Both the position numbers and the translations under genes were made by a program. The notes beneath the pieces were generated by a model. It worked only from the letters and a program-made list of their open reading frames with translations. It did no database searches and was not told the DNA's origin. From Actinomycetota bacterium (GTDB taxonomy: Bacteria > Actinomycetota > Acidimicrobiia > Acidimicrobiales > JAJPHD01), in the NCBI GenBank assembly GCA_021325455.1, contig JAJPHD010000026.1, positions 334,722-398,721 of the forward strand: a DNA stretch of 64,000 nt. The letters are read 5' to 3'. The stretch's first letter is position 1. Each line of letters starts with the position of its first letter. Below, one piece after another: positions 2,405 to 64,000 of the stretch.

Positions 2405-3616
2405 CTAGGAGAGGCGCTCCACCACCATCGCCATCCCCTGGCCCCCCCCGACGCACATGGTCTCGAGGCCCACGTTGGCGTCCTCGTGGGCCAGGCCGTT
2501 GAGCAGGGTGGTCATGATGCGGGCGCCCGTCATGCCGAACGGGTGCCCGAGGGCGATGGCCCCCCCGTGCACGTTCAGCTTGTCCCACTCGATGCCGAGA
2601 TGGCGGGCGCAGGGCACGACCTGGGCTGCGAAGGCCTCGTTCAGCTCGACCAGGTCGACGTCCCCGATGGTCATGCCCGCCCTCTTCAGGGCCTGGCGGC
2701 TGGCCTCGATGGGCCCCAGGCCCATGATCTCGGGGGTGAGGGCGCTGACCCCGCTGGAGACGATGCGGGCCAGGGGGGCTATCCCCAGCTGGCGGGCCCG
2801 GGTGTCGCTCATCACCACCACCGCGGCCGCCCCGTCGTTGAGGGGGCAGCTGTTGCCGGCCGTCACCCTCCCGTCGGGGCGGAAGGCGGGCTTCAACGTG
2901 GCCAGGACCTCGACGGTGGTGTTGGGACGGGGCCCGTCGTCGACCTCGAAGGTGCTGCCGTCGGGGAGGGTCACCGGCGTGATCTCGTCGCGGAAGAAGC
3001 CGTCCTCCTGGGCCTTCACCGCCCGCTGCTGGGAGAGGGCGGCATAGCGGTCCATCTCCTCGCGCGACACCTGCTCCAGCTCGGCCACGTTCTCCGCTGT
3101 CTGGCCCATGGCGATGTAGACGTCAGGCAGGCCCTCGGCGGGCGCCCAGGGCTCGGCCCCGCCCTCGGACCGCCTGGCCGAGCGGGCCTGGGCCTCTGAG
3201 AACCTGGGGTTCTGGGTGTCGGGCATGCCGTCGGAGGTACCCTTCACGAACCGGCTCACCATCTCCACCCCGGCGGCTATGAAGACGTCTCCCTCGCCGG
3301 CCTTGATGGCATGAGCGGCCATGCGGATGGTCTGGAGCGAGGACGAGCAGTACCGCGTGACGGTCGTGCCCGGGACGTCGTGCAGGCCGGCCAGGATGCT
3401 CACCACCCGGGCCATGTTGTAGCCCTGCTCCCCCCCGGGCAGGCCACAGCCCAGGATGATGTCCTCCACCTGGTCGGGGTCCAGCTCGGGCACTTTGGCC
3501 AGGACGGCCTGCACGATGGTGGCGGCGAGGTCGTCGGGGCGGACGTCGACCAGCGAGCCCTTGAAGGCGCGGCCGATGGGACTGCGGGCGGTGGCGACGA
3601 TGACGGCCTCGGGCAC
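2405..3616 (-). CDS. acetyl-CoA C-acetyltransferase (thiolase II)
   Basis: 403 aa. IVATARSPIGRAFKGSL N-terminus, active-site context RYCSSSLQ, C-terminal NVHGGAIALGHPFGMTGAR and CVGGGQG thiolase signatures. GAGGAGG Shine-Dalgarno (SD) sequence before the ATG. Confidence 0.92.
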   Translation of the reverse strand: MPEAVIVATARSPIGRAFKGSLVDVRPDDLAATIVQAVLAKVPELDPDQVEDIILGCGLPGGEQGYNMARVVSILAGLHDVPGTTVTRYCSSSLQTIRMAAHAIKAGEGDVFIAAGVEMVSRFVKGTSDGMPDTQNPRFSEAQARSARRSEGGAEPWAPAEGLPDVYIAMGQTAENVAELEQVSREEMDRYAALSQQRAVKAQEDGFFRDEITPVTLPDGSTFEVDDGPRPNTTVEVLATLKPAFRPDGRVTAGNSCPLNDGAAAVVVMSDTRARQLGIAPLARIVSSGVSALTPEIMGLGPIEASRQALKRAGMTIGDVDLVELNEAFAAQVVPCARHLGIEWDKLNVHGGAIALGHPFGMTGARIMTTLLNGLAHEDANVGLETMCVGGGQGMAMVVERLS

Positions 3617-3636
3617 GGCTCCTCCTCTGGGCTTCG

Positions 3637-3654
3637 GGTTACCGGTCAGTAACC
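3637..3654. promoter_or_regulatory. perfect-arm palindrome GGTTAC-N6-GTAACC upstream of the thiolase start (candidate operator or 5'-UTR hairpin)
   Basis: Sequence GGTTACCGGTCAGTAACC in a locally lower-GC patch, 21-38 nt upstream of the thiolase ATG (3616, minus strand). The function is inferred only. Confidence 0.35.
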
Positions 3655-3700
3655 ACTGCCCGATCTTTACCCCGCCCGGGCCGTCATCACCACCCGGAGC

Positions 3701-4090
3701 TCAGGCCAGGAACCTGTCCAGGGCGCCCTGGTCCTCCTCGAAGGACCAGAACTCGGTGGCCTTCCCGCCGGCCAGGTGCCAGGTGTGAACGGCTCGCCCC
3801 TCCAGGGTGCGCCCCTCCCGCTCGGCGTGGGCCACCACCATGGCAGCCCCATGCGTGTCGTTGGCCAGGATGTCGTGGACCTGAAGGCGGAAGGTGCCCC
3901 CGGACAGCTCCATGAGCCTGGCGAAGAAGCCCATGACCTCCTGGTGGCCCTTGTAGTCGCCGGTCAGCGGGCTGTCCCCCCCGATGTGCCAGGAGATGTC
4001 CTCGGAGAAGATGGACAGGACCGTGTCCAGGTCGCCGGCACCAAAGGCCTCGTAGCCGCGGCGCAAGAGCTCCTCGTTCGGGTGTGCCAT
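3701..4090 (-). CDS. SnoaL-like / NTF2-fold (ketosteroid-isomerase-like) protein
   Basis: Start re-set to the ATG at 4090 (MAHPNEELLRRGYEAFGAGDLDTVLSIFSEDISWHIGG...), the typical SnoaL_2 N-terminus. The upstream 26 codons of the track ORF look like run-on. Confidence 0.6.
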   Translation of the reverse strand: MAHPNEELLRRGYEAFGAGDLDTVLSIFSEDISWHIGGDSPLTGDYKGHQEVMGFFARLMELSGGTFRLQVHDILANDTHGAAMVVAHAEREGRTLEGRAVHTWHLAGGKATEFWSFEEDQGALDRFLA

Positions 4091-4172
4091 TGCCCCTCCC
4101 TTCTTCCCGCCCTCATGAGGCGGGGCCGATACATCGTATCCCTCCGCCGGGCCCCCCGCTCCGTCCACCCCT

Positions 4173-5117
4173 CTAGTCGCCGGCCCATCTCCATTCGTGC
4201 TCCCAGCCGCCGGCCTCCAGGGGCTGGCCTCCCAGGCGGAGCTGCCCGGCCCGGCCTGTGCAGCGCCCTATGCACGCCGGCCCGGCAAGACCCGCCATCC
4301 GGAAGGACCGGTCCACGGCGCCGGCGTCGGGGGAGGTGAAGAGGAGCTCGTAGTCCTCCCCGCCGGTCAGCGCCTCGGCCTCCGTTGCCCCCTCGGCCAC
4401 CGGCACGTGGTCCAGGTCCACCCCCACCCCGGAGGCCCGGGCGAGATGCCCGAGGTCAGCAGCCAGGCCGTCGGAGATGTCGATCATGGCCCGGGCCCCA
4501 CCCTCTGCAGCGGCCAGCCCCTCCGCCACCCGGGCCTCGGGCCGGCGGTGGCGACTCGCCAGCGCTCGTGACTCGAGGTCGCCTGAGCCGCCCCGGAGCG
4601 CCCGCAGCCCCGCCGCTGCCGCGCCGAGGGGCCCGGTCACGAACAGGAGGTCCCCTTCCCGGGCTCCGGAGCGCAGGACGGGGAGGCGCCCTCGGGGCAG
4701 CGAGCCGGTGACGGCCACGGACACCGTCACCACCGGGCCGTTGGAAAGGTCACCGCCCACGATGGGGCACCTCCAGCGCCTCGCCGCCTCGACCAGGCCC
4801 GAGTAAAGCAGCCCCAGATCCGTCTCGGGAGGCCCGGCCACGGTCACCAGGGCGTGGCCGGGGACCCCGCCCATGGCGGCGATGTCGCTCACGTTCACGG
4901 CCAGCGCCTTCCAGCCCAGGTCGTCCAGGCCCTCTAGGCCCAGGTCGGCGTGAACCCCGGCCACGACGAGGTCGGCAGCCAGGAGGAGGGGCCCTCCGGG
5001 GGTCTGGACCACGGCCGCATCGTCGCCGACCCACGTCTCCCCCGGGGGCGGGACGCCCAGCCGGGCCGTGAGCAGCTCTTGTATGCGCCCGATGGCGGCG
5101 AACTCTCCGGCGCCCAC
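4173..5117 (-). CDS. thiL: thiamine-monophosphate kinase ThiL
   Basis: Only the C-terminal about 315 aa of track ORF 4173..6329 is real; the rest is antisense to pckG. VGAGEFAAIGRI...GDDAAV...DLVVAGVH...GWKALAVNVSDIAAMGG...GGDLS = AIR-synthase-fold ThiL. GTG at 5117 gives the canonical GEF N-terminus; ATG at 5177 is the alternative start. Confidence 0.85.
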   Translation of the reverse strand: MGAGEFAAIGRIQELLTARLGVPPPGETWVGDDAAVVQTPGGPLLLAADLVVAGVHADLGLEGLDDLGWKALAVNVSDIAAMGGVPGHALVTVAGPPETDLGLLYSGLVEAARRWRCPIVGGDLSNGPVVTVSVAVTGSLPRGRLPVLRSGAREGDLLFVTGPLGAAAAGLRALRGGSGDLESRALASRHRRPEARVAEGLAAAEGGARAMIDISDGLAADLGHLARASGVGVDLDHVPVAEGATEAEALTGGEDYELLFTSPDAGAVDRSFRMAGLAGPACIGRCTGRAGQLRLGGQPLEAGGWEHEWRWAGD

Positions 5118-5201
5118 GAGCCAGAGAGTAAGCGGACACCGAACGTGATGGGAAAGAGAAGCGATTTCGCCCCTCATCTGGCGCCCCCCTAGGCTGGGCC
5201 C

Positions 5202-6998
5202 ATGGGTGCAAGGTCGCATAACAGCAAGCTGCTGAGGTGGGTGGACGAGGTGGCCGCCCTCACCACCCCCGACCGGGTCGAGTGGTGCGACGGCTCGGCC
5301 GAGGAGTACGACCGGCTGGCCCAGCTCCTGGTGGACCAGGGGGCCTTCGTGCGCCTCTCGGACGCCAAGCGACCCAACAGCTACTGGGCCCACTCCGACC
5401 CGGCCGACACCGCCCGGGTGGAGGGGCGCACCTTCATCTGCTCCGAGCGGGAGGAGGATGCCGGCCCCACCAACAACTGGCGGGACCCGGCCGAGATGCG
5501 CCGGACCCTCACCGGGCTCTTCCGGGGCTCCATGCGGGGGCGCACCATGTACGTAATTCCCTTCTCCATGGGACCCCTCGGGTCCCCGATCGCCCACATC
5601 GGGGTCCAGTGCACCGACTCTGCCTACGTGGCGGTGAACATGCGGATCATGACCCGCATGGGCCAGGCTGCCCTGGACGTGCTCGGGGACGACGGGGACT
5701 TCGTCCCCTGCCTGCACTCCGTGGGCGCCCCTCTGGAGCCGGGCCAGCAGGACGTGGCCTGGCCCTGCGACCCCGACAACAAGTACATCGTGCACTTCCC
5801 CGAGACGCGCGAGATCTGGTCCTACGGCTCGGGGTACGGGGGCAACGCCCTCCTGGGCAAGAAGTGCCTGGCCCTGCGCATCGCCTCGGTCATGGCTCGC
5901 GATGACGGCTGGCTGGCGGAGCACATGCTGATCGTGAAGCTGACCTCCCCTGAGGGGGAGACGCGTTACGTCACGGGTGCCTTCCCGTCGGCGTGTGGGA
6001 AGACCAACCTGGCCATGCTGGTCCCCACCCTTCCCGGATGGAAGGTGGAGACGGTGGGTGACGACATCTGCTGGATGAAGTTCGGTCCCGACGGCCGGCT
6101 CTACGCCATCAACCCGGAGGCGGGCTTCTTCGGCGTGGCTCCCGGCACCAGCATGAAGACCAACCCCAATGCCATGCTGACCCTGGACGGCAACTGCATC
6201 TTCACCAACACCGCCCTCACCGACGACGGCGACGTGTGGTGGGAGGGGATGACCGAGGAGCCACCCGCCCACCTCACGGACTGGAGGGGCCAGCCCTGGA
6301 CACCGTCCTCGGGGACGCCGGCGTCCCATCTCAATGCCCGCTTCACCGCCCCGGCCAGCCAGGACCCCGCCATCGCTCCAGAGTGGGAGGACCCGGCCGG
6401 GGTCCCCATCTCGGCCATCCTGTTCGGGGGGCGGAGGGCCTCAGTGGTGCCCCTCATCGTGGAGTCCACCAGCTGGCGCCACGGGGTGTTCCTGGGATCG
6501 ATCATGGCCTCGGAGACAACTGCTGCGGCCGCCGGCAAGGTGGGCAACCTGAGGCGTGACCCCTTCGCCATGCTGCCCTTCTGCGGCTACAACATGGGTG
6601 ACTACTTCGGCCACTGGTTGGAGGTGGGCCGGGCGACCACGCCGGACAAGCTGCCCAAGATCTTCTACGTCAACTGGTTCCGCAAGGACAGCGAGGGCCG
6701 GTTCCTCTGGCCCGGCTTCGGCGAGAACAGCCGGGTCCTGGAGTGGGTGTTCCAGCGCTGCGGAGGCAGGGGCGAGGCGGTGGAGACCCCCGTGGGCCTG
6801 GTCCCCGCCCCCGGGGCCATCGACACCAGCGGGCTCGACGTGCCCAAGGAGGACATGGAGGAGCTGCTGCGCGTCGACACCGGCGAGTGGCGGGCCGAGG
6901 TGCCGCTCATAAGGGAGCACTTCGAGCGGTTCGGAGCCCACCTGCCGGCGGAGCTCGCCGAGGAGCTGGAGGCGCTCTCCCAGCGCCTGGACAAGTAG
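5202..6998 (+). CDS. pckG: phosphoenolpyruvate carboxykinase (GTP)
   Basis: 598 aa. Kinase-1a loop [29 protein letters not shown] and FGGRR motifs. N-terminus collinear with mycobacterial PckG as I recall it. Confidence 0.95.
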
Positions 6999-25699: not shown

Positions 25700-25932
25700 C
25701 AGCCCAGCGGACGCCGGGGAGAGGGTGGCCACAGGTCGCCCCCCTGGAGCGGGAGCGGGGCGAGGTTGCACTGGGTCAGGGCGTCTAGCCCTGCAGCGGA
25801 ACAGCAGTTCCGCCATAGAGCCGGGTAAGCCCGGAGGCTCGGTCCCGAGGAGACCGGGGAGATCCCCGGCTACTTGGGGCCGAGTCGCGTGGGGGCCCCG
25901 GAGCCAAAACCACATCGGTGTAACGCGGGCTG
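25700..25932 (+). ncRNA. candidate structured RNA / long structured 5' leader of uvrD2 (family not recognised)
   Basis: Four contiguous hairpins: 25777-93 (6 bp), 25796-813 (7 bp, AGCA loop), 25818-40 (8 bp, UAAG loop) and 25841-81 (9+6 bp, including 2 G-U pairs that exist only on the + strand). A closing stem pairs 25700-09 with 25924-32. Confidence 0.3.
25797..25812. promoter_or_regulatory. weak LexA-box-like palindrome CGGAAC-AGCA-GTTCCG
   Basis: The core GAAC-N4-GTTC of the actinobacterial SOS box is present, but the flanks differ from TCGAAC/GTTCGA. It coincides with hairpin 2 of the structured leader, 135 nt upstream of the uvrD2 ATG. Confidence 0.3.
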
Positions 25933-55127: not shown

Positions 55128-56228
55128 TCAGGAGCCGAAGACGGCGGCCAGCTCCTCCGGCACGGCCGTTTCCAGCTGGTCGTAACGGCAGCTCTCCGCC
55201 GGGCGGTCCGGCCGCCAGCGGCGGAAGGTGGTGGCATGGCGGAAGCGGTCCCCCTGCAGGTGGTCGTAGGCCACCTCGCACACCAGCTCGGGCCGCAGGG
55301 GCTCCCACGAGAGGTCCCGGCCGGCGTTCCAGCGGCTGGTGGCACCGGGGCGCCGGCCGGCCCCGGCCGGGGGCCCCGCCCCTTCACCGGCTGCGGGCTG
55401 TGCATCCTCACCGGCCCACCCCGCCCACGGGTGACCGGCCAGGTCGGGCACCCGGTAGGGCTCCAGCTCCCCCACCAGCTCCTTGCGGCGGCGGTCGGTG
55501 AAGGAGGCGGTCACCCCCACGTGATGCAGCACGCCCCCGTCGTCATAGAGGCCGAGCAGCAGCGACCCCACCACCGGCCCGGACTTGTGCCAGCGGAACC
55601 CGGCCACGACGCAGTCGGCGGTCCGCTCGTGCTTGACCTTCACCATGGCCCGCCGGCCCTCCTGGTAGGGCTGGTCCAGGGCCTTCACGACCACCCCGTC
55701 CAGCCCGGCCCCCTCGAAGCGCCGGAACCAGTCCCCCGCCACCTCCCGGTCCCTCGTCTGCTGGGTGAGATGGACCGGGGGCCGGGCCCGGGCCAGCGCC
55801 TCCCCCAGGGCGGCCCTCCGCTCCTCGAAGGGCGCCGGGCGCAGGTCCCGGCCGCCCAGGGCCAGGATGTCGAAGGCCACGAAGGAGGCCGGCGTGGCCT
55901 CGGCCAGCATCCTCACCCGGGAGGCGGCCGGGTGGATGCGCTGGAGAAGGGCGTCGAAGTCCAGCCCCCGGGGGCCGGCGATGACGATCTCCCCGTCCAC
56001 CACGCACCGAGCGGGCAGCGAGGCGAGCAGGGGCGCCACCAGCTCCGGGAAGTAACGGGTGAGGGGCCTCTCGTTCCGGCTCCCCAGGACAACCTCGTCC
56101 CCGTCCCGGAAGACGACGGAGCGGAACCCGTCCCACTTGGGCTCGTAGGCCACCCCCCCTGCCGCCGGCAGCTCCCGGGCCAGCTTGGCCAGCATGGGGG
56201 CCACCGGGGGCATGACGGGCAAGTCCAT
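55128..56228 (-). CDS. ligC: ATP-dependent DNA ligase (LigC-like, no Ku or primase neighbour)
   Basis: 366 aa. Adenylation motif I EPKWDGFR, plus GEIV, LVAFDIL, GLDGVVVK, and a C-terminal OB domain. Confidence 0.85.
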   Translation of the reverse strand: MDLPVMPPVAPMLAKLARELPAAGGVAYEPKWDGFRSVVFRDGDEVVLGSRNERPLTRYFPELVAPLLASLPARCVVDGEIVIAGPRGLDFDALLQRIHPAASRVRMLAEATPASFVAFDILALGGRDLRPAPFEERRAALGEALARARPPVHLTQQTRDREVAGDWFRRFEGAGLDGVVVKALDQPYQEGRRAMVKVKHERTADCVVAGFRWHKSGPVVGSLLLGLYDDGGVLHHVGVTASFTDRRRKELVGELEPYRVPDLAGHPWAGWAGEDAQPAAGEGAGPPAGAGRRPGATSRWNAGRDLSWEPLRPELVCEVAYDHLQGDRFRHATTFRRWRPDRPAESCRYDQLETAVPEELAAVFGS

Positions 56229-57771: not shown

Positions 57772-60096
57772 TCAGCCTCTCACCGGGACCTCGACCAGGC
57801 CGCCGGGCAGGTGGACGACGGCCTGCCGGGCTCGCCCTCCGGCCATGTCCACCGCCACCACCGCCCCGGTGGCGTCCAGCACGGGGCGGGGACGCCAGAC
57901 GTGGGGGCCGTCGAGGATCTCACCGGGACGGCCGGGCCCGGGGAACACGTGCAGGGTCCAGGGCTCCCCGGGGGCCACCTGGTCCGTGCACTGCATGGGC
58001 GGCCCCATGGGCACCACGGACCCTCCCCGGGCGAACAGCGGCAGCCGCTCCAGGGGGGCCTCCACCTCCACCCAGGCGGGGCCGGTGCGGGCTTGCCCCG
58101 ACCACCAGTCCACCCATTCCCCGGGAGGCAGGTAGCAGGCCACACCGACGGGGCCCGGCCCGTCGTCGAGGACCGGCACCACCAGGAGGTCCGAGCCCAG
58201 CAGGTACTGGTGCTCGACAGCCCAGGCCGCCCTGTCCCCGGGGTACTCCAGGGCCACCGGCCTCATCAGGGGCCACCCGTGGCGGGCCGCCTCGCCCGCC
58301 ACGTGCAGGAGGTAGGGCAGGAGGCGGTAGCGCAGCTCCATGAACGCCCGGACTATCCCGAGGGCCCGGTCGCCGAAGGCCCAGGGCTCGCGGGGCCCGA
58401 TCCCGTGGAAGCGGGCCAGGGGGGAGAGGCACCCCCACTGGGCCCAGCGGACGAAGAGCCCCGGCGTGAGGCCATGGCCCGAGAACCCGCCGATGTCGTG
58501 GGCCCACAGGCCCGGTGCCGACACCGCCCATCCCAGGCCACCCCGCAGGCTGGCGGCCATGCCGGCCACGCTGCACTCGGCATCACCGCCCCACTGCCCC
58601 GGGTAGCGCTGCGAGCCGGCCCACCCGCTGCGGCCCAGGACGAAGGGCGCCACCTCGGCGACCGTGCGGTTGTACCAGAGGGGGTAGATGTTGCACCACG
58701 ACCGGCCGGGGCTGCCGTCCGACATCACGGCGTCGTCGGGCAGACCCTCGCCGAAGTCGGTCGTGAAGGCGGCCACCCCCGCCCCGAGCAGGGGCCGGTG
58801 GCGCTCCTGCCACCACCTGCGGGCCTCGGGGTTGCTCATGTCCACCATGGCCCGGGGACGACCATCGGCCGTGAAGGTCGAGACCGCCGCCGGTTGCCCC
58901 CCTGCCTTCTCGACCAGGAACCCCTTGGCAGCAGCCTCACCGTAGGCGGGGGAGGCCGGGTCCAGGTAGGGGCACTCCCACAGTGACAGGCGCAGCCCCT
59001 CACGAGCCAGGTCGCCGACCAGGTCCTCGGGACGGCCGAAGCGCTCCTCGCTCCACTCGAAGTCGCAGCACAGCCGGTCCCTCACCAGCCAGCTCGGGTC
59101 CAGGTGGACCACGTCGCAGGGGAGGCGGTGCCGGCGCAGGCCGGACACCACCTCTTCCACCTGGGCCCGGTCCCGGTAGCGGCAGCGCGACATCCACACC
59201 CCGAGGGCCCAGCGGGGGGGCATCGGCGGGCGCCCGGTCAGCTCCGTGTAGAGGCTGAGACGCTCCCTCGGGTCGGGTCCCACGATGAGGAAGAGGTCCA
59301 TCACCTCCCCCTCCACCTCGAGGGCCAGCACCGCCGGCCAGGTGGCGCCCACGTCGGCCACCACCGGCCCCGGGGAGTGGACGAAGGCGCTGTAGCCGGC
59401 GCTGCTGTGGAGCACCGGGGCTGCCTTGTAGGCCCGCCCCGTGCCCGTGCCCAGGGCATCGGCTACGACCAGCTCGAGCCGCTGGCCATTGCGCACCAGG
59501 GGCCCGAAATGCTCGCCCAGTCCCGTGATGGCCTCGCCGGGCTGGATCTCGAGGGCTACCGACAGCTTGCCGCCGGGGTGGAGGGTCACCGCCGGGGCGA
59601 GGGGCAGGCCGGCCACCTGCCGGCGCTCGCCGGCCGTGGTCACCAGCGTGCGTCCGGTGGGGTCCATCAGGGTCAAGCCGAAGGGGCGGCGGCCGATCCG
59701 GCACTGCAGCGCCTCGGTGCCGAGGACCACCGCCCTCTCCTGCTCGGCCACCTCCAGCGGACCCGTCCCCGGGTCGCCGGCCAGGATGCCGGCGGAGAGA
59801 CCGTCGTCGAGGGGGCGCCAGGGCCGGCCCGGCACCAGGGTGAGCCGGAGGACAGCGGGCGCCGGGGAGCGGACCACGAGGGAGGCGGGGGAGCGTCCGA
59901 CAGGCAGGGCGGGCAGGGGGGGGAGGTTGGGCAGGTCGACGACGATCCCCTGGGTGGCGGGATCCTCCCCGGTGAGGACCCCGAGCGAGGAGCTCAGGCG
60001 TAGGCCGGTGACCATCTCCAGGTCGAGGTCGGTTCGTTCAGGGCCGGCCCTCACCTTCGTCACCGAACGGGCCAAGGTGATGGGGACCGGCTCCAC
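57772..60096 (-). CDS. glycoside hydrolase family 31 (alpha-glucosidase/alpha-xylosidase, YicI-like)
   Basis: 774 aa. WALGVWMSRCRY, LPCDVVHLDPSW, the nucleophile region GVAAFTTDFGEGLP, and WGGDAECS. Confidence 0.88.
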   Translation of the reverse strand: MEPVPITLARSVTKVRAGPERTDLDLEMVTGLRLSSSLGVLTGEDPATQGIVVDLPNLPPLPALPVGRSPASLVVRSPAPAVLRLTLVPGRPWRPLDDGLSAGILAGDPGTGPLEVAEQERAVVLGTEALQCRIGRRPFGLTLMDPTGRTLVTTAGERRQVAGLPLAPAVTLHPGGKLSVALEIQPGEAITGLGEHFGPLVRNGQRLELVVADALGTGTGRAYKAAPVLHSSAGYSAFVHSPGPVVADVGATWPAVLALEVEGEVMDLFLIVGPDPRERLSLYTELTGRPPMPPRWALGVWMSRCRYRDRAQVEEVVSGLRRHRLPCDVVHLDPSWLVRDRLCCDFEWSEERFGRPEDLVGDLAREGLRLSLWECPYLDPASPAYGEAAAKGFLVEKAGGQPAAVSTFTADGRPRAMVDMSNPEARRWWQERHRPLLGAGVAAFTTDFGEGLPDDAVMSDGSPGRSWCNIYPLWYNRTVAEVAPFVLGRSGWAGSQRYPGQWGGDAECSVAGMAASLRGGLGWAVSAPGLWAHDIGGFSGHGLTPGLFVRWAQWGCLSPLARFHGIGPREPWAFGDRALGIVRAFMELRYRLLPYLLHVAGEAARHGWPLMRPVALEYPGDRAAWAVEHQYLLGSDLLVVPVLDDGPGPVGVACYLPPGEWVDWWSGQARTGPAWVEVEAPLERLPLFARGGSVVPMGPPMQCTDQVAPGEPWTLHVFPGPGRPGEILDGPHVWRPRPVLDATGAVVAVDMAGGRARQAVVHLPGGLVEVPVRG

Positions 60097-60116
60097 GGGA
60101 CCGAACCTTACGGCTC

Positions 60117-60145
60117 TTGCGGTATCGAACTGGTGTTCGTAGGAT
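60117..60145 (+). promoter_or_regulatory. imuB promoter: TTGCGG - 17 nt - TAGGAT
   Basis: The -35-like TTGCGG is at 60117-22 and the -10 TAGGAT at 60140-45 (fits TANNNT). The spacer is almost entirely the LexA box. It lies about 48 nt upstream of the imuB GTG, which has an AGGAGAG SD. Confidence 0.5.
60125..60140. promoter_or_regulatory. LexA (SOS) box TCGAAC-TGGT-GTTCGT
   Basis: 15 of 16 bases match (16-bp site) the actinobacterial/mycobacterial SOS box TCGAAC-N4-GTTCGA. It overlaps the -10 element of the imuB promoter. Confidence 0.8.
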
Positions 60146-60193
60146 GGGAGACCCGGGCCACCGGGCGGAGCAAAGCTGGAGCGAGCAGGAGAG

Positions 60194-61453
60194 GTGGTGG
60201 CCTTGAGCCAGGTCGTCGTGTCCCCGGAGGGCCCTACCCTCCTCGAGCGCAGGAGCGAGGTCGGCTGCCTGCTGGTGCCGCGCTTCCCGCTGGCCTGCGA
60301 AGTGGCCGAGCGCCCCTGGTTGGCCGGCCTGCCGGTGGCGGTGGCCGACCCCTCTTCCCCGGTGGTGTGGACAGCCTCTCCCGAGGCGGAGGCAGAGGGA
60401 GTGGCGCCCGGTCAACCTCTGTCCGAGGCCCTGGGGCGGTGCCCTTCCCTGGCCGTGCTCGAGGGACGGCCGGCCCGCTATGCCAGTGTGGCCGAGGAGG
60501 TCATGGCCTGCCTGGAAGGGGCAGCCCCGGGGGTGGAAGAAGGCCCCCCCGGTGTGGCCTGGGTGGAGCGGGTGGACCGCCTGGGTTCTTCCTCACAAGG
60601 CTGGTGGGCCGGGTTGCTGGCCTGCCTTCCTCCCCACCTCGGCCGGGTCCCACCCCGCCTCCAGCCCCGCCTGGGTGTGGCCCCCGCCAAGTTCGCCGCC
60701 CTGGTCGCCGCCCACGGGGCCCCGGGTGGGGGCATCCTGGCCCTCGAGGCGGAGTCCATGGCCGCCTACCTGGAGCGCCAGCCCGTCGCCGTGCTGCCCG
60801 TCCCGGCCGAGGTCCGCCGGCGGCTGGTCCTCATGGGCATCACCACGCTGGGGCGGCTCTCCGGCCTGCCCCGCTCGGCCGTGGTGGCCCAGTTCGGCCC
60901 GGTCGGGGGCCGGGCCTGGGACCTGGCCCGGGGCCAGGCCGAGCCGGTGCGCCCCCGGGCCCACCCCGTGAAGGTGGTGGGCCGGCTCCTCCTCTCCGAG
61001 CCCCTGTCCAGTCGGGAGGCCCTGCTGGCAGCGGCGGAGCAGACCTTGTCCCGGGCCGTGCGCCAGCCCCGCTTCCGGGGAAGGGCGGCCCGCCGGGCTC
61101 GCCTGCTCGCCGTGGACGAGCGGGGCGGGGCCTACGACCGGACGGTCACCTTCAAGTCCGCTCTGGCTGGCAGGAGGGCATTGTGGACCGTGCTGCGCCC
61201 CTACCTGGCCGAGGCCCGCCTGCCTGCCCCGGTGAGCGAGATCTCCATCGAGCTGGACGGGCTCTGCCCCCAGCGGGGACAGCAAGGCGAGCTGCTCCCC
61301 CCCCGGATGGCCCCCCAGCGGGAGCGCCTGGAGGAGTGCCTGCGCCAGCTCAAGGCCCGTTACGGCTACTGCCCCGTCGGGCGGGTGGTGGCGGTGGAGC
61401 CATGGAGCAGGATCCCCGAGCGGCGGCTGGCCCTCATCGACTTCGACCTCTAG
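60194..61453 (+). CDS. imuB: ImuB, catalytically inactive Y-family polymerase-like subunit of the SOS mutasome
   Basis: 419 aa. N-terminal CLLVPRFPLACEV replaces the DinB D-x-D catalytic motif. Y-family palm and little-finger-like layout (GVAPAKFAALVAA..., LPVPAEVRRRLVLMGITTLGRL). A LexA box lies upstream and dnaE2 downstream. Confidence 0.85.
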   Translation: MVALSQVVVSPEGPTLLERRSEVGCLLVPRFPLACEVAERPWLAGLPVAVADPSSPVVWTASPEAEAEGVAPGQPLSEALGRCPSLAVLEGRPARYASVAEEVMACLEGAAPGVEEGPPGVAWVERVDRLGSSSQGWWAGLLACLPPHLGRVPPRLQPRLGVAPAKFAALVAAHGAPGGGILALEAESMAAYLERQPVAVLPVPAEVRRRLVLMGITTLGRLSGLPRSAVVAQFGPVGGRAWDLARGQAEPVRPRAHPVKVVGRLLLSEPLSSREALLAAAEQTLSRAVRQPRFRGRAARRARLLAVDERGGAYDRTVTFKSALAGRRALWTVLRPYLAEARLPAPVSEISIELDGLCPQRGQQGELLPPRMAPQRERLEECLRQLKARYGYCPVGRVVAVEPWSRIPERRLALIDFDL

Positions 61454-61536
61454 GCCAGCCGGTCCCCGCCCAGGTCACCACCGGCGCCGGAGGCCAGCCG
61501 GCCCGCGCCGGCGCCCGGGGCCGGTCGTGCCAGGAG

Positions 61537-61692
61537 GTGGTGGAGGTACAGGAGACCTGGCGGGTGGACGAGGGCTGGTGGCGGCCCAAGCCCATCTCCC
61601 GGCTCTACTACCGTCTGGTCCTGGCCGACGGCCAGCACCTCACCGTCTACCGGGACCTGGTCGGGGGGGGTTGGTGGGCCCAGCGGTATTGA
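61537..61692 (+). CDS. small Trp-rich ORF downstream of imuB (start uncertain: GTG 61537/61540 or ATG 61402 overlapping imuB)
   Basis: Only the last about 50 codons of shadow ORF 60133..61692 look real: VVEVQETWRVDEGWWRPKPISRLYYRLVLADGQHLTVYRDLVGGGWWAQRY. High GC3; AGGAGG at 61532-37. Confidence 0.45.
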   Translation: MVEVQETWRVDEGWWRPKPISRLYYRLVLADGQHLTVYRDLVGGGWWAQRY

Positions 61693-61709
61693 CCACGGGC
61701 GGGGCCGGG

Positions 61710-61919
61710 CTATCGCCCCGACGGCCGGCGTAAACCGGCGCGGGCGAGGACATGGTGAAAGAGGTCAGCCACGATCGGCACGACCTCAGCGGCGCTGCGG
61801 TCCTCCCCGGCCAGGCCGTCGAAGGTCTCGAAGCCCATCAGCACATGCAGCGTCCTGGCCAGCTCGTCGATGCGGGCCCCTCGCGGCGGGCGCGGACCGA
61901 GGCGTCCCAGGAGCATCAC
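61710..61919 (-). pseudogene. possible C-terminal fragment of a TetR-family-like regulator (no HTH part present)
   Basis: The last about 69 codons of track ORF 61710..62210 have coding-like GC3 (VMLLGRLGPRPPRGARIDELARTLHVLMGFETFDGLAGEDRSAAEVVPIVADLFHHVLA). The rest of that ORF is antisense to the membrane gene. The family call is weak. Confidence 0.25.
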
Positions 61920-61974
61920 CAGCCCCCGCGGCCCTGGACCCCGATGTCGGCGCCGTGATCGCTGCCTGGCCGAG

Positions 61975-62352
61975 GTGGTGGCCAATGGCCCGGTTGGGCT
62001 GTCCATCCACGTGGTGCTGGGGATCCTCCTCTTCGTGAGCGGGATCACCGTGGTGGTGCGAGCCGCCCTCCTACGCCGGACCCTTCCGATCTCCCTGGCC
62101 GCTGCCGGGTTGGCGGCCATACTGGTCGCCGGCGGGAGCGGGGCCCGTTTCGTGGGCCAGGGGAGCACCAACGCCTCCCTGGTGATGGCGCTGGCCGCTG
62201 GCCTTGCCATCGTGTCCTACGCCGCCATCCTCTTCGTCTCGCCCTCCCCCATGAGACCGGCCGACAGGGAGGACCACCGGGCGGAGGCCACGGCTGCGGG
62301 GGCGGCCCTGTCCGGGACGGGTGAAGCCACGCCGGCCGGCCGCCATGGCTGA
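61975..62352 (+). CDS. hypothetical 4-TM membrane protein
   Basis: Real part of track ORF 61870..62352; GTG 61975. Helices LSIHVVLGILLFVSGITVVV, LPISLAAAGLAAILVAG, ASLVMALAAGLAIVSYAAILFV. Confidence 0.45.
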   Translation: MVANGPVGLSIHVVLGILLFVSGITVVVRAALLRRTLPISLAAAGLAAILVAGGSGARFVGQGSTNASLVMALAAGLAIVSYAAILFVSPSPMRPADREDHRAEATAAGAALSGTGEATPAGRHG

Positions 62353-62457
62353 GCTGGCTGGCCCTCGTCCCTCCCCTTCGCTCGGCCCGGCACCGGGCAG
62401 AGGCATCCCCCCGGTACCCAGGCCCGCCCCGGCCGCTCCCGCTGCCGGGTCTCTGTC

Positions 62458-63348
62458 ATGACCCCAGGGACCGGCTCCCCCCTCGCCGGCCAGTCTGCCG
62501 TCGTGACCGGCGCCAGCAGTGGCATCGGCTTCCACACAGCCCTGCTCTTCGCCAGGCGAGGGGCATCCGTCACCATCACCGGGCGTGACCCGAAGCGGGG
62601 CGCCGGAGCCGTGGCGGCCATCCGGGCCGCGGCCGGGCACGGGGCGGTGCGGTTCATGGCTTGTGACCACTCGCTGGCCGCGGCCAACCAGGACCTGGCC
62701 GCCCGCCTGACGAGCTCCCTCGACCGCCTCGACCTGCTGGTGAACAACGTAGGGGGCATCTCGGCCAAGCGGCGGGTCACCGAAGAGGGCATCGAGTGGT
62801 CCCTGGCCGTCAACTTCCTCGCCCCCTTCACCCTCACCGGGGCCCTCCTCCCCAAGCTCAGGGAGAGCCCCGGCGTCAGCCGGTGCCCGAACGTCGTCTC
62901 CAGCGCCTACAAGATGGCCAGGGGGGACCCCTTCGAGGACCTGCAGGCCGCCCGGTCCTACGTGGGTATCGAGGTCCACGGACGAGCCAAGCTCTTCACC
63001 CTGCTGTGGTCACTCGGCTTGAGCCGCCACACCCCGCCCAGAGAGCTCGTGGTGGTGGCCGTGAACCCGGGGATGACCTGGACGCCGATGACCCAGTCCA
63101 TGACCCCTGAGGTGGTCCCGGCATGGAGGTACTTCTTCCCCGTCGTGCGGGCCTTCCAGCGCCGGGCCCATCCGGCTCGTGCCGCCGGGAACTGCGAGCG
63201 GCTCGCCCTGGCTACCCTTCAGGCCGTCTCGGGGCGCTACTTCGACGGCAAGAAGCCCAAGCGGCTCCCCGATCAGCTCGGCGATCCGGAGCTCATCGAG
63301 CGGGTCATGCGTATCGGGATGCAGTTGCGCTCCTCGGCCTTGGCCTGA
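62458..63348 (+). CDS. short-chain dehydrogenase/reductase (SDR) family oxidoreductase
   Basis: 296 aa. Cofactor motif AVVTGASSGIGFHTA, LVNNVGG, and an active-site region SSAYKMA. Confidence 0.8.
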   Translation: MTPGTGSPLAGQSAVVTGASSGIGFHTALLFARRGASVTITGRDPKRGAGAVAAIRAAAGHGAVRFMACDHSLAAANQDLAARLTSSLDRLDLLVNNVGGISAKRRVTEEGIEWSLAVNFLAPFTLTGALLPKLRESPGVSRCPNVVSSAYKMARGDPFEDLQAARSYVGIEVHGRAKLFTLLWSLGLSRHTPPRELVVVAVNPGMTWTPMTQSMTPEVVPAWRYFFPVVRAFQRRAHPARAAGNCERLALATLQAVSGRYFDGKKPKRLPDQLGDPELIERVMRIGMQLRSSALA

Positions 63349-63376
63349 CAGCCCGACTCAGGTATCACGGCTATTG

Positions 63377-63392
63377 TAGAACACATGTTCGA
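63377..63392. promoter_or_regulatory. LexA (SOS) box TAGAAC-ACAT-GTTCGA
   Basis: 15 of 16 bases match (16-bp site) TCGAAC-N4-GTTCGA. It lies 53 nt upstream of the dnaE2 ATG, and TATTGT (TANNNT) at 63372-77 abuts it. Confidence 0.75.
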
Positions 63393-63444
63393 GGCCAGGA
63401 GCCGGCCGGCCTCAGCCGCCCCGTCACCGAGACCGTCCCTTTCG

Positions 63445-64000
63445 ATGCCGGTTGAGACCGGTTCCTGCCCAAGGAGCTCCGGTCCATCCAGCCATGAGAC
63501 CAGCGGCCCGGGCCAGCCCGCCCCGGACTATGTGGAGCTGCACGTCCACACCAACTACTCGCTCTTGGAAGGAGCCTCCCATCCCCGGGAGCTGGTCGAG
63601 CAAGCCGCCGACTACGGGTACCGGGCTCTCGCCATCACCGACCGGGACAATCTCCATGGGGCGCTCGAGTTCGCCCGCCTGTGCCGGGAGCGCGGCATCC
63701 AGCCCATTGCCGGCGTGGAGCTGACGGTGGCTGAGGACCCCGACGCCGACCCGGGCCAGGAGCCCGGCCAGGGGAGCCGCCATTCACTGGTGCTGCTGGC
63801 CGAGACCCGCCGGGGCTGGGCCAACCTGTGCCGGCTGGTCAGCCTGGCCCACGGGCATGCCGAGACCACCCAGGCCGGCCGGGAGCGGCGCCGGCGGGAC
63901 CCCTGCCTGGCCCGCCGATACCTCGCCAGCCACTCGGCCGGGCTCATCTGCCTGACCGGAGGCCGGCGCAGCGAGGTGGCCATGGCGGTCGACGCCGGTC
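63445..64000 (+). CDS. dnaE2: error-prone DNA polymerase III alpha subunit DnaE2 (ImuC), N-terminal PHP domain; runs off the right edge
   Basis: Own translation from ATG 63445: MPVETGSCPRSS...PDYVELHVHTNYSLLEGASHPRELVEQAADYGYRALAITDRDNLHGALEFARLCRERGIQPIAGVEL...HSLVLLAETRRGWANLCRLVS = PHP domain. Absent from the track because it has no stop in the window. Confidence 0.88.
   Translation, partial: MPVETGSCPRSSGPSSHETSGPGQPAPDYVELHVHTNYSLLEGASHPRELVEQAADYGYRALAITDRDNLHGALEFARLCRERGIQPIAGVELTVAEDPDADPGQEPGQGSRHSLVLLAETRRGWANLCRLVSLAHGHAETTQAGRERRRRDPCLARRYLASHSAGLICLTGGRRSEVAMAVDAG

Follow-up and report, generated by a model that had tools for sequence, protein, structure and literature searches.

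A probable ImuA-less DnaE2 mutasome with split ImuB in a high-GC actinobacterial genome

We analyzed a 64,000 nt stretch of DNA (the window; G+C ~74%) from an Actinomycetota bacterium (JAJPHD01, Acidimicrobiales; GCA_021325455.1, contig JAJPHD010000026.1, positions 334,722–398,721), which ends with an imuB-like gene, a small open reading frame (ORF), an inserted segment and the 5′ part of dnaE2 (Table 1). Most probably this locus specifies a translesion mutasome that lacks ImuA, is repressed by LexA and belongs to the split-ImuB type, DnaE2X-iPolY-ImuB-C(-RecA), where iPolY (or ImuY) is an inactive Y-family polymerase and ImuB-C is the detached C-terminal domain of ImuB. The locus is assigned to this module because its iPolY, ImuB-C and DnaE2 N-terminus are 43%, 44% and 55% identical, respectively, to published members. 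A preliminary description of the same DNA, whose inventory of ORFs and LexA boxes was essentially correct, had assumed that the described systems comprise only imuA-imuB-dnaE2 cassettes or imuA′-imuB with an unlinked dnaE2. This view is out of date (PMC3765255, PMC6511836, PMC12926913, PMC8072749).

ImuB-C was defined by Aravind (2013; PMC3765255), where solo ImuB-C occurring with DnaE2 and an inactive DinB was also noted. The operon of inactive PolY, standalone ImuB-C and DnaE2 was described as the 'Kyrpidia tusciae type' (Timinskas and Venclovas, Nucleic Acids Research (NAR) 2019, PMC6511836); genomes with this operon were reported to have no imuA, and RecA was proposed as the replacement. 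The class was later named DnaE2X-iPolY-ImuB-C-RecA, with 'split ImuB', and its four-protein complex was modelled (NAR 2026, PMC12926913); the members given there include Sphaerobacter thermophilus, Dehalogenimonas, Kyrpidia and Deinococcus deserti. In the table of this survey, the three AlphaFold-Multimer confidence values for the S. thermophilus model are ~0.83–0.85. The substitute for ImuA proposed in the literature is RecA, bound via a RecA N-terminus-like (RecA-NT-like) motif in the PolY tail. For the Deinococcus imuY-imuB-C-dnaE2 operon, two species devoid of imuA, D. deserti and D. ficus, were reported to need ImuY and DnaE2 for mutagenesis by ultraviolet (UV) light (PMC8072749). The ImuA-less layout is an already known, experimentally supported variant, and a missing imuA is not an anomaly but part of what defines this mutasome class.

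The small ORF, which had been noted for its Trp content and regarded either as an unrelated insert or as a possible supplier of ImuA function, is neither of these but a standalone ImuB-C, the split-off C-terminal domain of ImuB. The profile of its family was aligned by hhalign with five C-termini of canonical ImuB from annotated imuA-imuB-dnaE2 cassettes (probability 96.7%, E=4.6e-10, 79 columns) and with residues 410–483 of 504 of Rhizobium etli p42f ImuB (E=4e-5). By tblastn, the ORF matched the C-terminus of the annotated ImuB in the lexA-imuA-imuB-dnaE2 cassette of Ca. Manganitrophus, and BLASTP against ImuB-C of S. thermophilus (ACZ39476) gave an end-to-end alignment with 44% identity (E=6e-24). 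The six close homologues, from Acidimicrobiales-type metagenomes, are all standalone proteins of 76–94 aa; the family profile retrieved 1438 cluster representatives at E≤1e-3, of which the best 150 are likewise all standalone (59–197 aa). The window ORF itself had no match in Pfam or NCBIfam, and DUF6504 of Pfam was reached by 4 of 31 family members. The AlphaFold2 (AF2) model of ImuB-C is a six-stranded β-barrel (predicted local distance difference test score (pLDDT) 86), and searches of PDB with the family returned nothing significant either by sequence or by fold, which agrees with the published statement that ImuB-C is a novel β-barrel (NAR 2026, PMC12926913). A short 'hypothetical' ORF following an imuB-like gene is thus an annotation trap, as it represents the missing C-terminal domain of ImuB. 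In R. etli p42f (locus L088, 385–2227), genes for a SRAP peptidase, dinB and an 86 aa hypothetical ORF adjoin the imuA-imuB-dnaE2 cassette; this ORF beside dinB is not detectably ImuB-C by hhalign against the single sequence.

The upstream gene, already named imuB in the preliminary description, is a Y-family ORF carrying PF00817. The AF2 model of its product adopts the Y-family fold (pLDDT 85.8; Foldseek E~1e-24 to Dpo4/DinB), but the three catalytic carboxylates are absent: the DxD motif (DMD) is replaced by LVP and DE by GV, as HIDMDAYY of DinB aligns with CLLVPRFP and SLDEAYLD with PPGVAWVE. From these residues the imuB product is predicted to be a catalytically dead Y-family polymerase. 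A full-length alignment with the published iPolY-wE2X of S. thermophilus (ACZ39475) shows 43% identity (E=3e-74). Among the 120 homologues listed of 358, the lengths range from ~345 to 483 aa and no precomputed Pfam domain is present besides the polymerase domains, while a tblastn search of plasmids with the window iPolY gave no match. The imuB start is ambiguous: GTG at 60194 or 60197 is nearly abutted by GGAGAG resembling a ribosome binding site, and GTG at 60260 is preceded by AGGAG at a 4 nt spacing and is where homologues from other phyla begin. Residues 1–17 are disordered in the AF2 model.

Downstream of the little finger, iPolY contains three conserved elements, namely a QGELL linker, a helix-strand motif LEECLRQLKARYGYCPVGRVV and an invariant tail, EPWSRIPERR. 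G362, Q364 and L367 are invariant in 20 iPolY homologues, and the linker is predicted to be disordered (pLDDT <50 at residues 362–369). We infer at the level of the pattern that Q364-G-E-L-L368 is a putative β-clamp-binding motif, situated between the little finger and the RecA-NT-like motif. The latter, L..LRQL...YG....R, is strongly conserved, with a predicted helix at residues 370–390 and a strand at 397–401, and it is common to the published iPolYs that were modelled with RecA. We count it as no more than consistent with the published RecA-NT-like motif.

The full dnaE2 was read from a public contig (L001) whose DNA is identical to the window and which extends the visible sequence by ~4 kb; there the gene spans 2924–6652 on the minus strand, continuing the window from 63445. 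An exact-sequence look-up with the upstream GH31 gene led to this contig, and those with ImuB, the short-chain dehydrogenase/reductase of the insert and two further proteins (P0157 and P0277) gave no contig. The DnaE2 protein of 1242 aa matches NCBIfam NF004225, 'error-prone DNA polymerase', with 974 bits against a cutoff of 939. Over the N-terminal 415 aa it shares 55% and 46% identity with two published DnaE2X proteins, compared with 29–33% for four DnaE2A proteins from imuA-containing cassettes. By this pairwise identity, the window DnaE2 is assigned to the DnaE2X group. A low-complexity loop of ~120 aa rich in Gly, Pro, Ala, Arg and Glu is found inside the PHP domain (residues ~186–305). 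This loop is longer in the closest relative of the locus (L002) and absent from the relative L004 and from R. etli DnaE2 in the alignment; with 1095 aa, the DnaE2X published for S. thermophilus is ~150 aa shorter. The PHP domain is the docking place of ImuB-C in the published models (PMC12926913).

Both imuB and dnaE2 are preceded by their own LexA box, as had been noted: the TCGAACtggtGTTCGT box lies 53 nt before imuB and the TAGAACacatGTTCGA box 52 nt before the dnaE2 ATG at 63445. The window contains three GAAC-N4-GTTC sites, compared with 0.2 expected. The first box is kept in L002 as TCGAACggatGTTCGT, and the TAGAACacatGTTCGA box stands unchanged before dnaE2 of this relative. A scan of species-representative genomes identified at least 547 stretches encoding relatives of ImuB-C; the best 80 of these were analyzed with ±8 kb, together with metagenomic relatives. 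By title the 80 loci are mostly from Chloroflexota, ~20 from Gemmatimonadota and a few from Dormibacterota and Actinomycetota, and all 80 are from metagenome-assembled genomes (MAGs). Of 77 related loci, 27 have an exact GAAC-N4-GTTC site in the 300 nt before iPolY, and the enrichment of LexA-type boxes ahead of iPolY and dnaE2 in related loci is ~20-fold. Few loci (the window, L002, L049 and L059) have a second box before dnaE2. The divergent GH31 gene reported as the upstream neighbor of imuB was confirmed, and the interval between the two genes (60097–60193) contains the LexA box only. These motifs suggest SOS (LexA) control of the locus. The third GAAC-N4-GTTC site, GGAACagcaGTTCC (25799–25810), is located just upstream of an ORF (25725/25940–28112, plus strand) resembling UvrD/PcrA helicases, as judged from the translation by eye without a family search. 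Whereas the other two boxes have the form TCGAAC/GTTCGA, this site has different flanks; the helicase ORF is plausibly another SOS-regulated gene.

Compared with known systems at the level of sequence, the window locus shows each feature of the split-ImuB class for which a test had a clear outcome, and lacks those that define the canonical and mycobacterial ImuA systems. It shares with the DnaE2X-iPolY-ImuB-C-RecA module an inactive PolY, a standalone ImuB-C and DnaE2 in that order and the lack of ImuA, and with the S. thermophilus proteins the iPolY tail ...VEPWSRIPERR... and the ImuB-C N-terminus M..(~10 residues)..LRPL. It differs from this module in the 1.67 kb insert before dnaE2, the LexA box of dnaE2 itself, the host, which is probably represented by an Acidimicrobiales MAG, and the ~120 aa loop in the PHP domain. 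The Deinococcus imuY-imuB-C-dnaE2 system, the only version with genetic proof, in that imuY and dnaE2 mutants lose UV mutagenesis, is also ImuA-less and LexA/RecA-controlled and consists of a dead Y-family protein, a small ImuB-C and DnaE2. However, the window has LexA boxes instead of a lexA gene in the operon, its DnaE2 is only 30% identical to that of D. deserti, and its ImuB-C is 96 aa long in contrast to 80 aa in Deinococcus. The canonical (lexA-)imuA-imuB-dnaE2 cassettes of Proteobacteria and Nitrospirota (for example, those of R. etli p42f and the Ca. Manganitrophus plasmid) have in common with the window SOS control, a dead Y-family scaffold, a homologous ImuB-C and DnaE2, but they contain ImuA, an ImuB-C fused to ImuB and DnaE2A, whereas the window has no ImuA, a split ImuB and DnaE2X. 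The mycobacterial imuA′-imuB system with unlinked dnaE2 (PMC10421592) resembles the window in its actinobacterial host, the separate LexA-controlled imuB and dnaE2 units and the GAAC-N4-GTTC box. In the window, by contrast, a LexA box and the divergent GH31 gene rather than imuA′ are located upstream of imuB, ImuB is devoid of a fused C-terminal domain, and DnaE2 falls outside the ImuA-associated group. The Streptomyces DnaE2B-iPolY (scDinB2) system is likewise actinobacterial and ImuA-less with an inactive PolY adjoining DnaE2, but it is without ImuB-C, which in the window is present and overlaps iPolY.

iPolY is encoded directly upstream of ImuB-C in 71 of the 80 related loci, and dnaE2 is located downstream on the same strand in 53. 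In most relatives dnaE2 follows imuB-C by a few to ~30 nt, apparently in one operon with a single upstream LexA box. The closest relative, L002, encodes an ImuB and an ImuB-C that are 90% and 91% identical to those of the window, and shares the neighboring GH31, HAD, PAP2 and ligase genes and the downstream MOSC gene. Here dnaE2 begins ~330 nt after imuB-C, behind the same box and without any insert. Homology between the window and L002 ends at 61695 and resumes at ~63368, so that ~1.67 kb stands in place of ~130 bp of intergenic DNA. The absence of the insert from L002 indicates a lineage-specific rearrangement, which we regard as recent. This supports the earlier suggestion that foreign genes were brought between two SOS-controlled units by rearrangement, although the segment is smaller than the ~1.9 kb given at that time. 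Neither direct or inverted repeats nor a target-site duplication was found at the insert flanks. A mobile-element origin was considered and rejected for lack of terminal inverted repeats and target-site duplication.

The insert contains three ORFs. The reverse ORF had been called a TetR-like fragment, but it gave no match in Pfam or NCBIfam at E≤0.1 and none by tblastn against plasmids at E≤1; TetR identity was rejected for want of similarity, as neither a TetR_N helix-turn-helix nor a TetR C-terminal domain could be recognized. Its sole database homologue is one unnamed protein with 90% identity, and the G+C content by codon position does not discriminate the coding strand at this ORF. The small membrane ORF has three hydrophobic segments in the Kyte-Doolittle scan, not the four transmembrane segments counted previously, and a G+C content at third codon positions (GC3) of 0.87. 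Its weak, partial match to PF09534 (E=0.002–0.003, below cutoff) covers only the distal part of the profile, and the ORF may therefore be 5′-truncated. The third ORF, a short-chain dehydrogenase/reductase (SDR) as described, is intact (PF00106, 2.7e-24; NF004846, 7.5e-42), with TGASSGIG fitting the TGxxxGxG motif, and no SDR is found at the equivalent position in L002. The SDR is cargo and does not belong to the mutasome. By eye, its catalytic YxxxK seems to read HGRAK (..GIEVHGRAKLF..), and the active-site Tyr may be replaced by His.

Other relatives also carry unrelated genes at the imuB-C/dnaE2 junction, as identified from translations read by eye. A reverse-strand pair of a PIN (VapC-like) toxin and an AbrB/SpoVT-like antitoxin is present there in several Chloroflexota MAGs (L009, 8288–9219; L015, 6168–7044; L032, 2520–3438; L041, 8276–9155; L047, 8282–9184; L057, 8282–9162; L011, 8273–9476), HAD hydrolases in L075 and L049, and a major facilitator superfamily (MFS) transporter in L076. 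The arrangement of dnaE2 varies as well: it is unlinked or divergently arranged in L004 and L005, and in an Acidimicrobiales relative it is divergent from imuB-imuB-C with two boxes in between. Because junction cargo and dnaE2 arrangement vary among relatives, imuB and imuB-C form the fixed unit, to which dnaE2 is flexibly linked. The recurrence of unrelated cargo raises the possibility that the junction is a preferred landing site where genes hitch-hike on SOS-induced transcription. The inserted membrane and SDR genes might be functional, rendered damage-inducible by read-through from the imuB promoter, and the insert might have been selected rather than being neutral. Both genes point the same way as imuB-C, a search for intrinsic terminators between 61692 and 63348 detected none, and other lineages have cargo at the same junction. 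However, this cargo differs between lineages and is missing from the closest relative, and the left part of the insert looks fragmentary; we consider selection of the insert unlikely, though the best surviving of the alternatives.

No imuA or imuA′ was found in the locus, in line with the preliminary description. A hidden Markov model (HMM) of ImuA searched against the six-frame translation of the 64 kb window gave a best E of 0.6 and no ImuA-like ORF. The same HMM found nothing in 86 loci, and detected all control ImuAs and a distant RecA-like protein of Thermomicrobium roseum. A tblastn search with R. etli ImuA returned nothing in the window and chance-level matches only in the related loci (E 0.23 or worse). 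The T. roseum megaplasmid (NC_011961.1; L087, 2217–7682) represents a third arrangement, in which a recA-like gene (357 aa) is accompanied by genes for a 416 aa hypothetical protein, with a marginal ImuB-C match at its C-terminus, and DnaE2. T. roseum, a cultured member of the Chloroflexota group, may thus have a system of the ImuA3 type.

Several points weigh against the assignment to the RecA-using, ImuA-less class, beside the use of pairwise N-terminal identity to assign DnaE2. When the iPolY tail motif was compared with eight RecA N-termini by hhalign, the expected register was obtained but the match was weak (E=0.004, probability 9%); against a two-sequence RecA N-terminal alignment the register was off by one residue and the match lacked significance (E=0.049, probability 1%). 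RecA N-termini were not retrieved by a short motif HMM either. recA is not present in the window. A simple scan found no sigma-70-like promoter consensus, a null result that is uninformative because the host is a 74%-GC actinobacterium. Moreover, the three cultured Acidimicrobiia in the table of NAR 2026 (PMC12926913) carry DnaE2A, the ImuA-associated type, and the ImuA HMM, built from proteobacterial and Nitrospirota ImuA, may miss actinobacterial ImuA′ (ImuA2), while the search covered 64 kb plus ~4 kb of the host genome. The last three points would also fit a mycobacterial-style system, with imuA′ under its own LexA box elsewhere in the genome and the small ORF merely a broken-off piece of ImuB. 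Against this, none of the three proteins groups with ImuB2 or DnaE2A; all of them fall with published components of the ImuA-less DnaE2X system. The search for ImuA was also negative in the metagenomic relatives and in the ±8 kb around each of the 80 related genome loci. In addition, imuB and imuB-C overlap by 52 nt across at least three phyla, which argues that the split is not a recent break, and the literature reports no imuA in genomes that have this system. We thus find a hidden imuA′ very unlikely and retain the ImuA-less assignment.

The overlap of imuB and imuB-C is itself a conserved feature. The imuB-C start codon, ATG at 61402, straddles the Pro403 (CCA) and Trp404 (TGG) codons of imuB, taking its A from the former and its TG from the latter, and imuB-C runs in the −1 frame over 52 nt to the imuB stop codon at 61451–61453. 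Among 66 related loci keeping the Pro-Trp pair, 56 have ATG (33 loci), GTG (21) or TTG (2) at this position, in frame with ImuB-C and without a stop. The ATG arises from the rare Pro codon CCA, found in 33 loci, among them the 74%-GC genome of the window. In 51 loci the overlap measures exactly 52 nt, and this fixed length spans Chloroflexota, Dormibacterota, Actinomycetota and some Gemmatimonadota. A GTG called as the start in relatives, giving 76 aa products, is GTC in the window; this is immaterial, since the upstream ATG is the family-typical start. Family members conserve the N-terminal segment LRPL(N)xPxP, which the overlap encodes and whose counterpart in fused ImuB is RPxRLLxxP. Neither the Pro-Trp-derived start with its fixed overlap nor the recurrent junction cargo was found in the portions of the literature compared here.

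An open −1 frame throughout a fixed and unusually conserved overlap would also be expected if programmed −1 frameshifting fused iPolY to ImuB-C. The split would then be only apparent, and the product would match the domain order of full-length canonical ImuB exactly. The strong conservation of the overlap DNA is accounted for by the dual coding of two conserved peptides, and the start codon kept at one position, created by a rare CCA in many loci, is at odds with frameshifting. In some Gemmatimonadota the ImuB-C match lies 26–40 nt past the iPolY stop codon or iPolY lies kilobases away, ImuB-C is a separate chain in published annotations and complex models, and inspection of the overlap revealed no X-XXY-YYZ slippery heptamer. 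Translational coupling is therefore favored, and a fusion by frameshifting seems extremely improbable. We can only speculate, with a small chance of being right, that the Pro-Trp overlap is a dedicated coupling device setting the stoichiometry of iPolY and ImuB-C and, jointly, that the imuB-C/dnaE2 junction is a preferred landing site for cargo; a regulated frameshift site that gives both split and fused ImuB is less likely than such a coupling device.

Finally, 1.67 kb of foreign, partly fragmentary DNA separating imuB-C from a dnaE2 that most relatives apparently keep in one operon might mean that the system was uncoupled and inactivated and that the locus is a decaying remnant, but we consider this extremely unlikely, as all three ORFs are intact with coding-type GC3, dnaE2 retains a LexA box that, being shared with L002, is older than the insertion, and dnaE2 is also unlinked or divergent in the functional-looking relatives L004 and L005 and, by distant accession numbers only, in S. 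thermophilus.

In the ImuA-less mutasome that we favor, DNA damage would lead to RecA-stimulated cleavage of LexA and to derepression of both units, as described for homologues. By analogy, iPolY would serve as the scaffold, contacting the β-clamp via the QxxLL motif of the linker and, in the place of ImuA, RecA via the RecA-NT-like motif. ImuB-C would be made in step with iPolY by translational coupling and dock on the PHP domain of DnaE2, which would carry out error-prone synthesis. In the lineage of the window, the segment with the reverse ORF, the ORF with three hydrophobic segments and the SDR entered between imuB-C and dnaE2. As dnaE2 was by then equipped with a LexA box and promoter region of its own, the insertion was presumably tolerated. 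The features specific to the window are modest: this insertion before a LexA-boxed dnaE2, the probable membership in Acidimicrobiia and the loop in the DnaE2 PHP domain. The class is indicated in probable Acidimicrobiia, the closest named homologues being from Acidimicrobiales MAGs. Complete genomes show only a 'small' group, but the genome scan suggests a much higher frequency in Chloroflexota, Gemmatimonadota and Dormibacterota that are uncultured. The locus raises no new question on DnaE2 mutasomes beyond the published one, whether RecA replaces ImuA.

Table 1. Features of the imuB-dnaE2 region, in window coordinates
Feature	Position	Strand	Basis or remark
GH31 glycosidase	57772–60096	−	divergent, upstream neighbor of imuB
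LexA box TCGAACtggtGTTCGT	60125–60140	.	palindrome scan
imuB-like gene, predicted inactive Y-family polymerase (iPolY/ImuY), 419 aa	60194–61453	+	PF00817
QGELL, clamp-binding-like motif, iPolY residues Q364–L368	61283–61297	+	QxxL[LF] pattern
RecA-NT-like helix-strand motif LEECLRQLKARYGYCPVGRVVAV, iPolY residues 379–401	61328–61396	+	conservation and predicted structure
imuB-C, 96 aa (small Trp-rich ORF of the preliminary description)	61402–61692	+	ImuB C-terminal profile match
Inserted segment, ~1.67 kb	61696–63367	.	alignment of window with L002
Reverse ORF, 68 aa in the L001 gene call, with the frame open up to 62210	61710–61916	−	without family match
Small membrane ORF, 125–160 aa	61975–62352	+	Kyte-Doolittle scan
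SDR, 296 aa	62458–63348	+	PF00106, NF004846
Second LexA box TAGAACacatGTTCGA	63377–63392	.	palindrome scan
dnaE2, 5′ end; ATG at 63445, continues past the window end	63445–64000	+	PHP domain

An ORF for an ATP-dependent DNA ligase (55128–56228, minus strand) is located ~4 kb upstream of the mutasome genes. Its equivalent in L002 has PF01068 and PF04679, and this neighboring ligase may be another repair gene.

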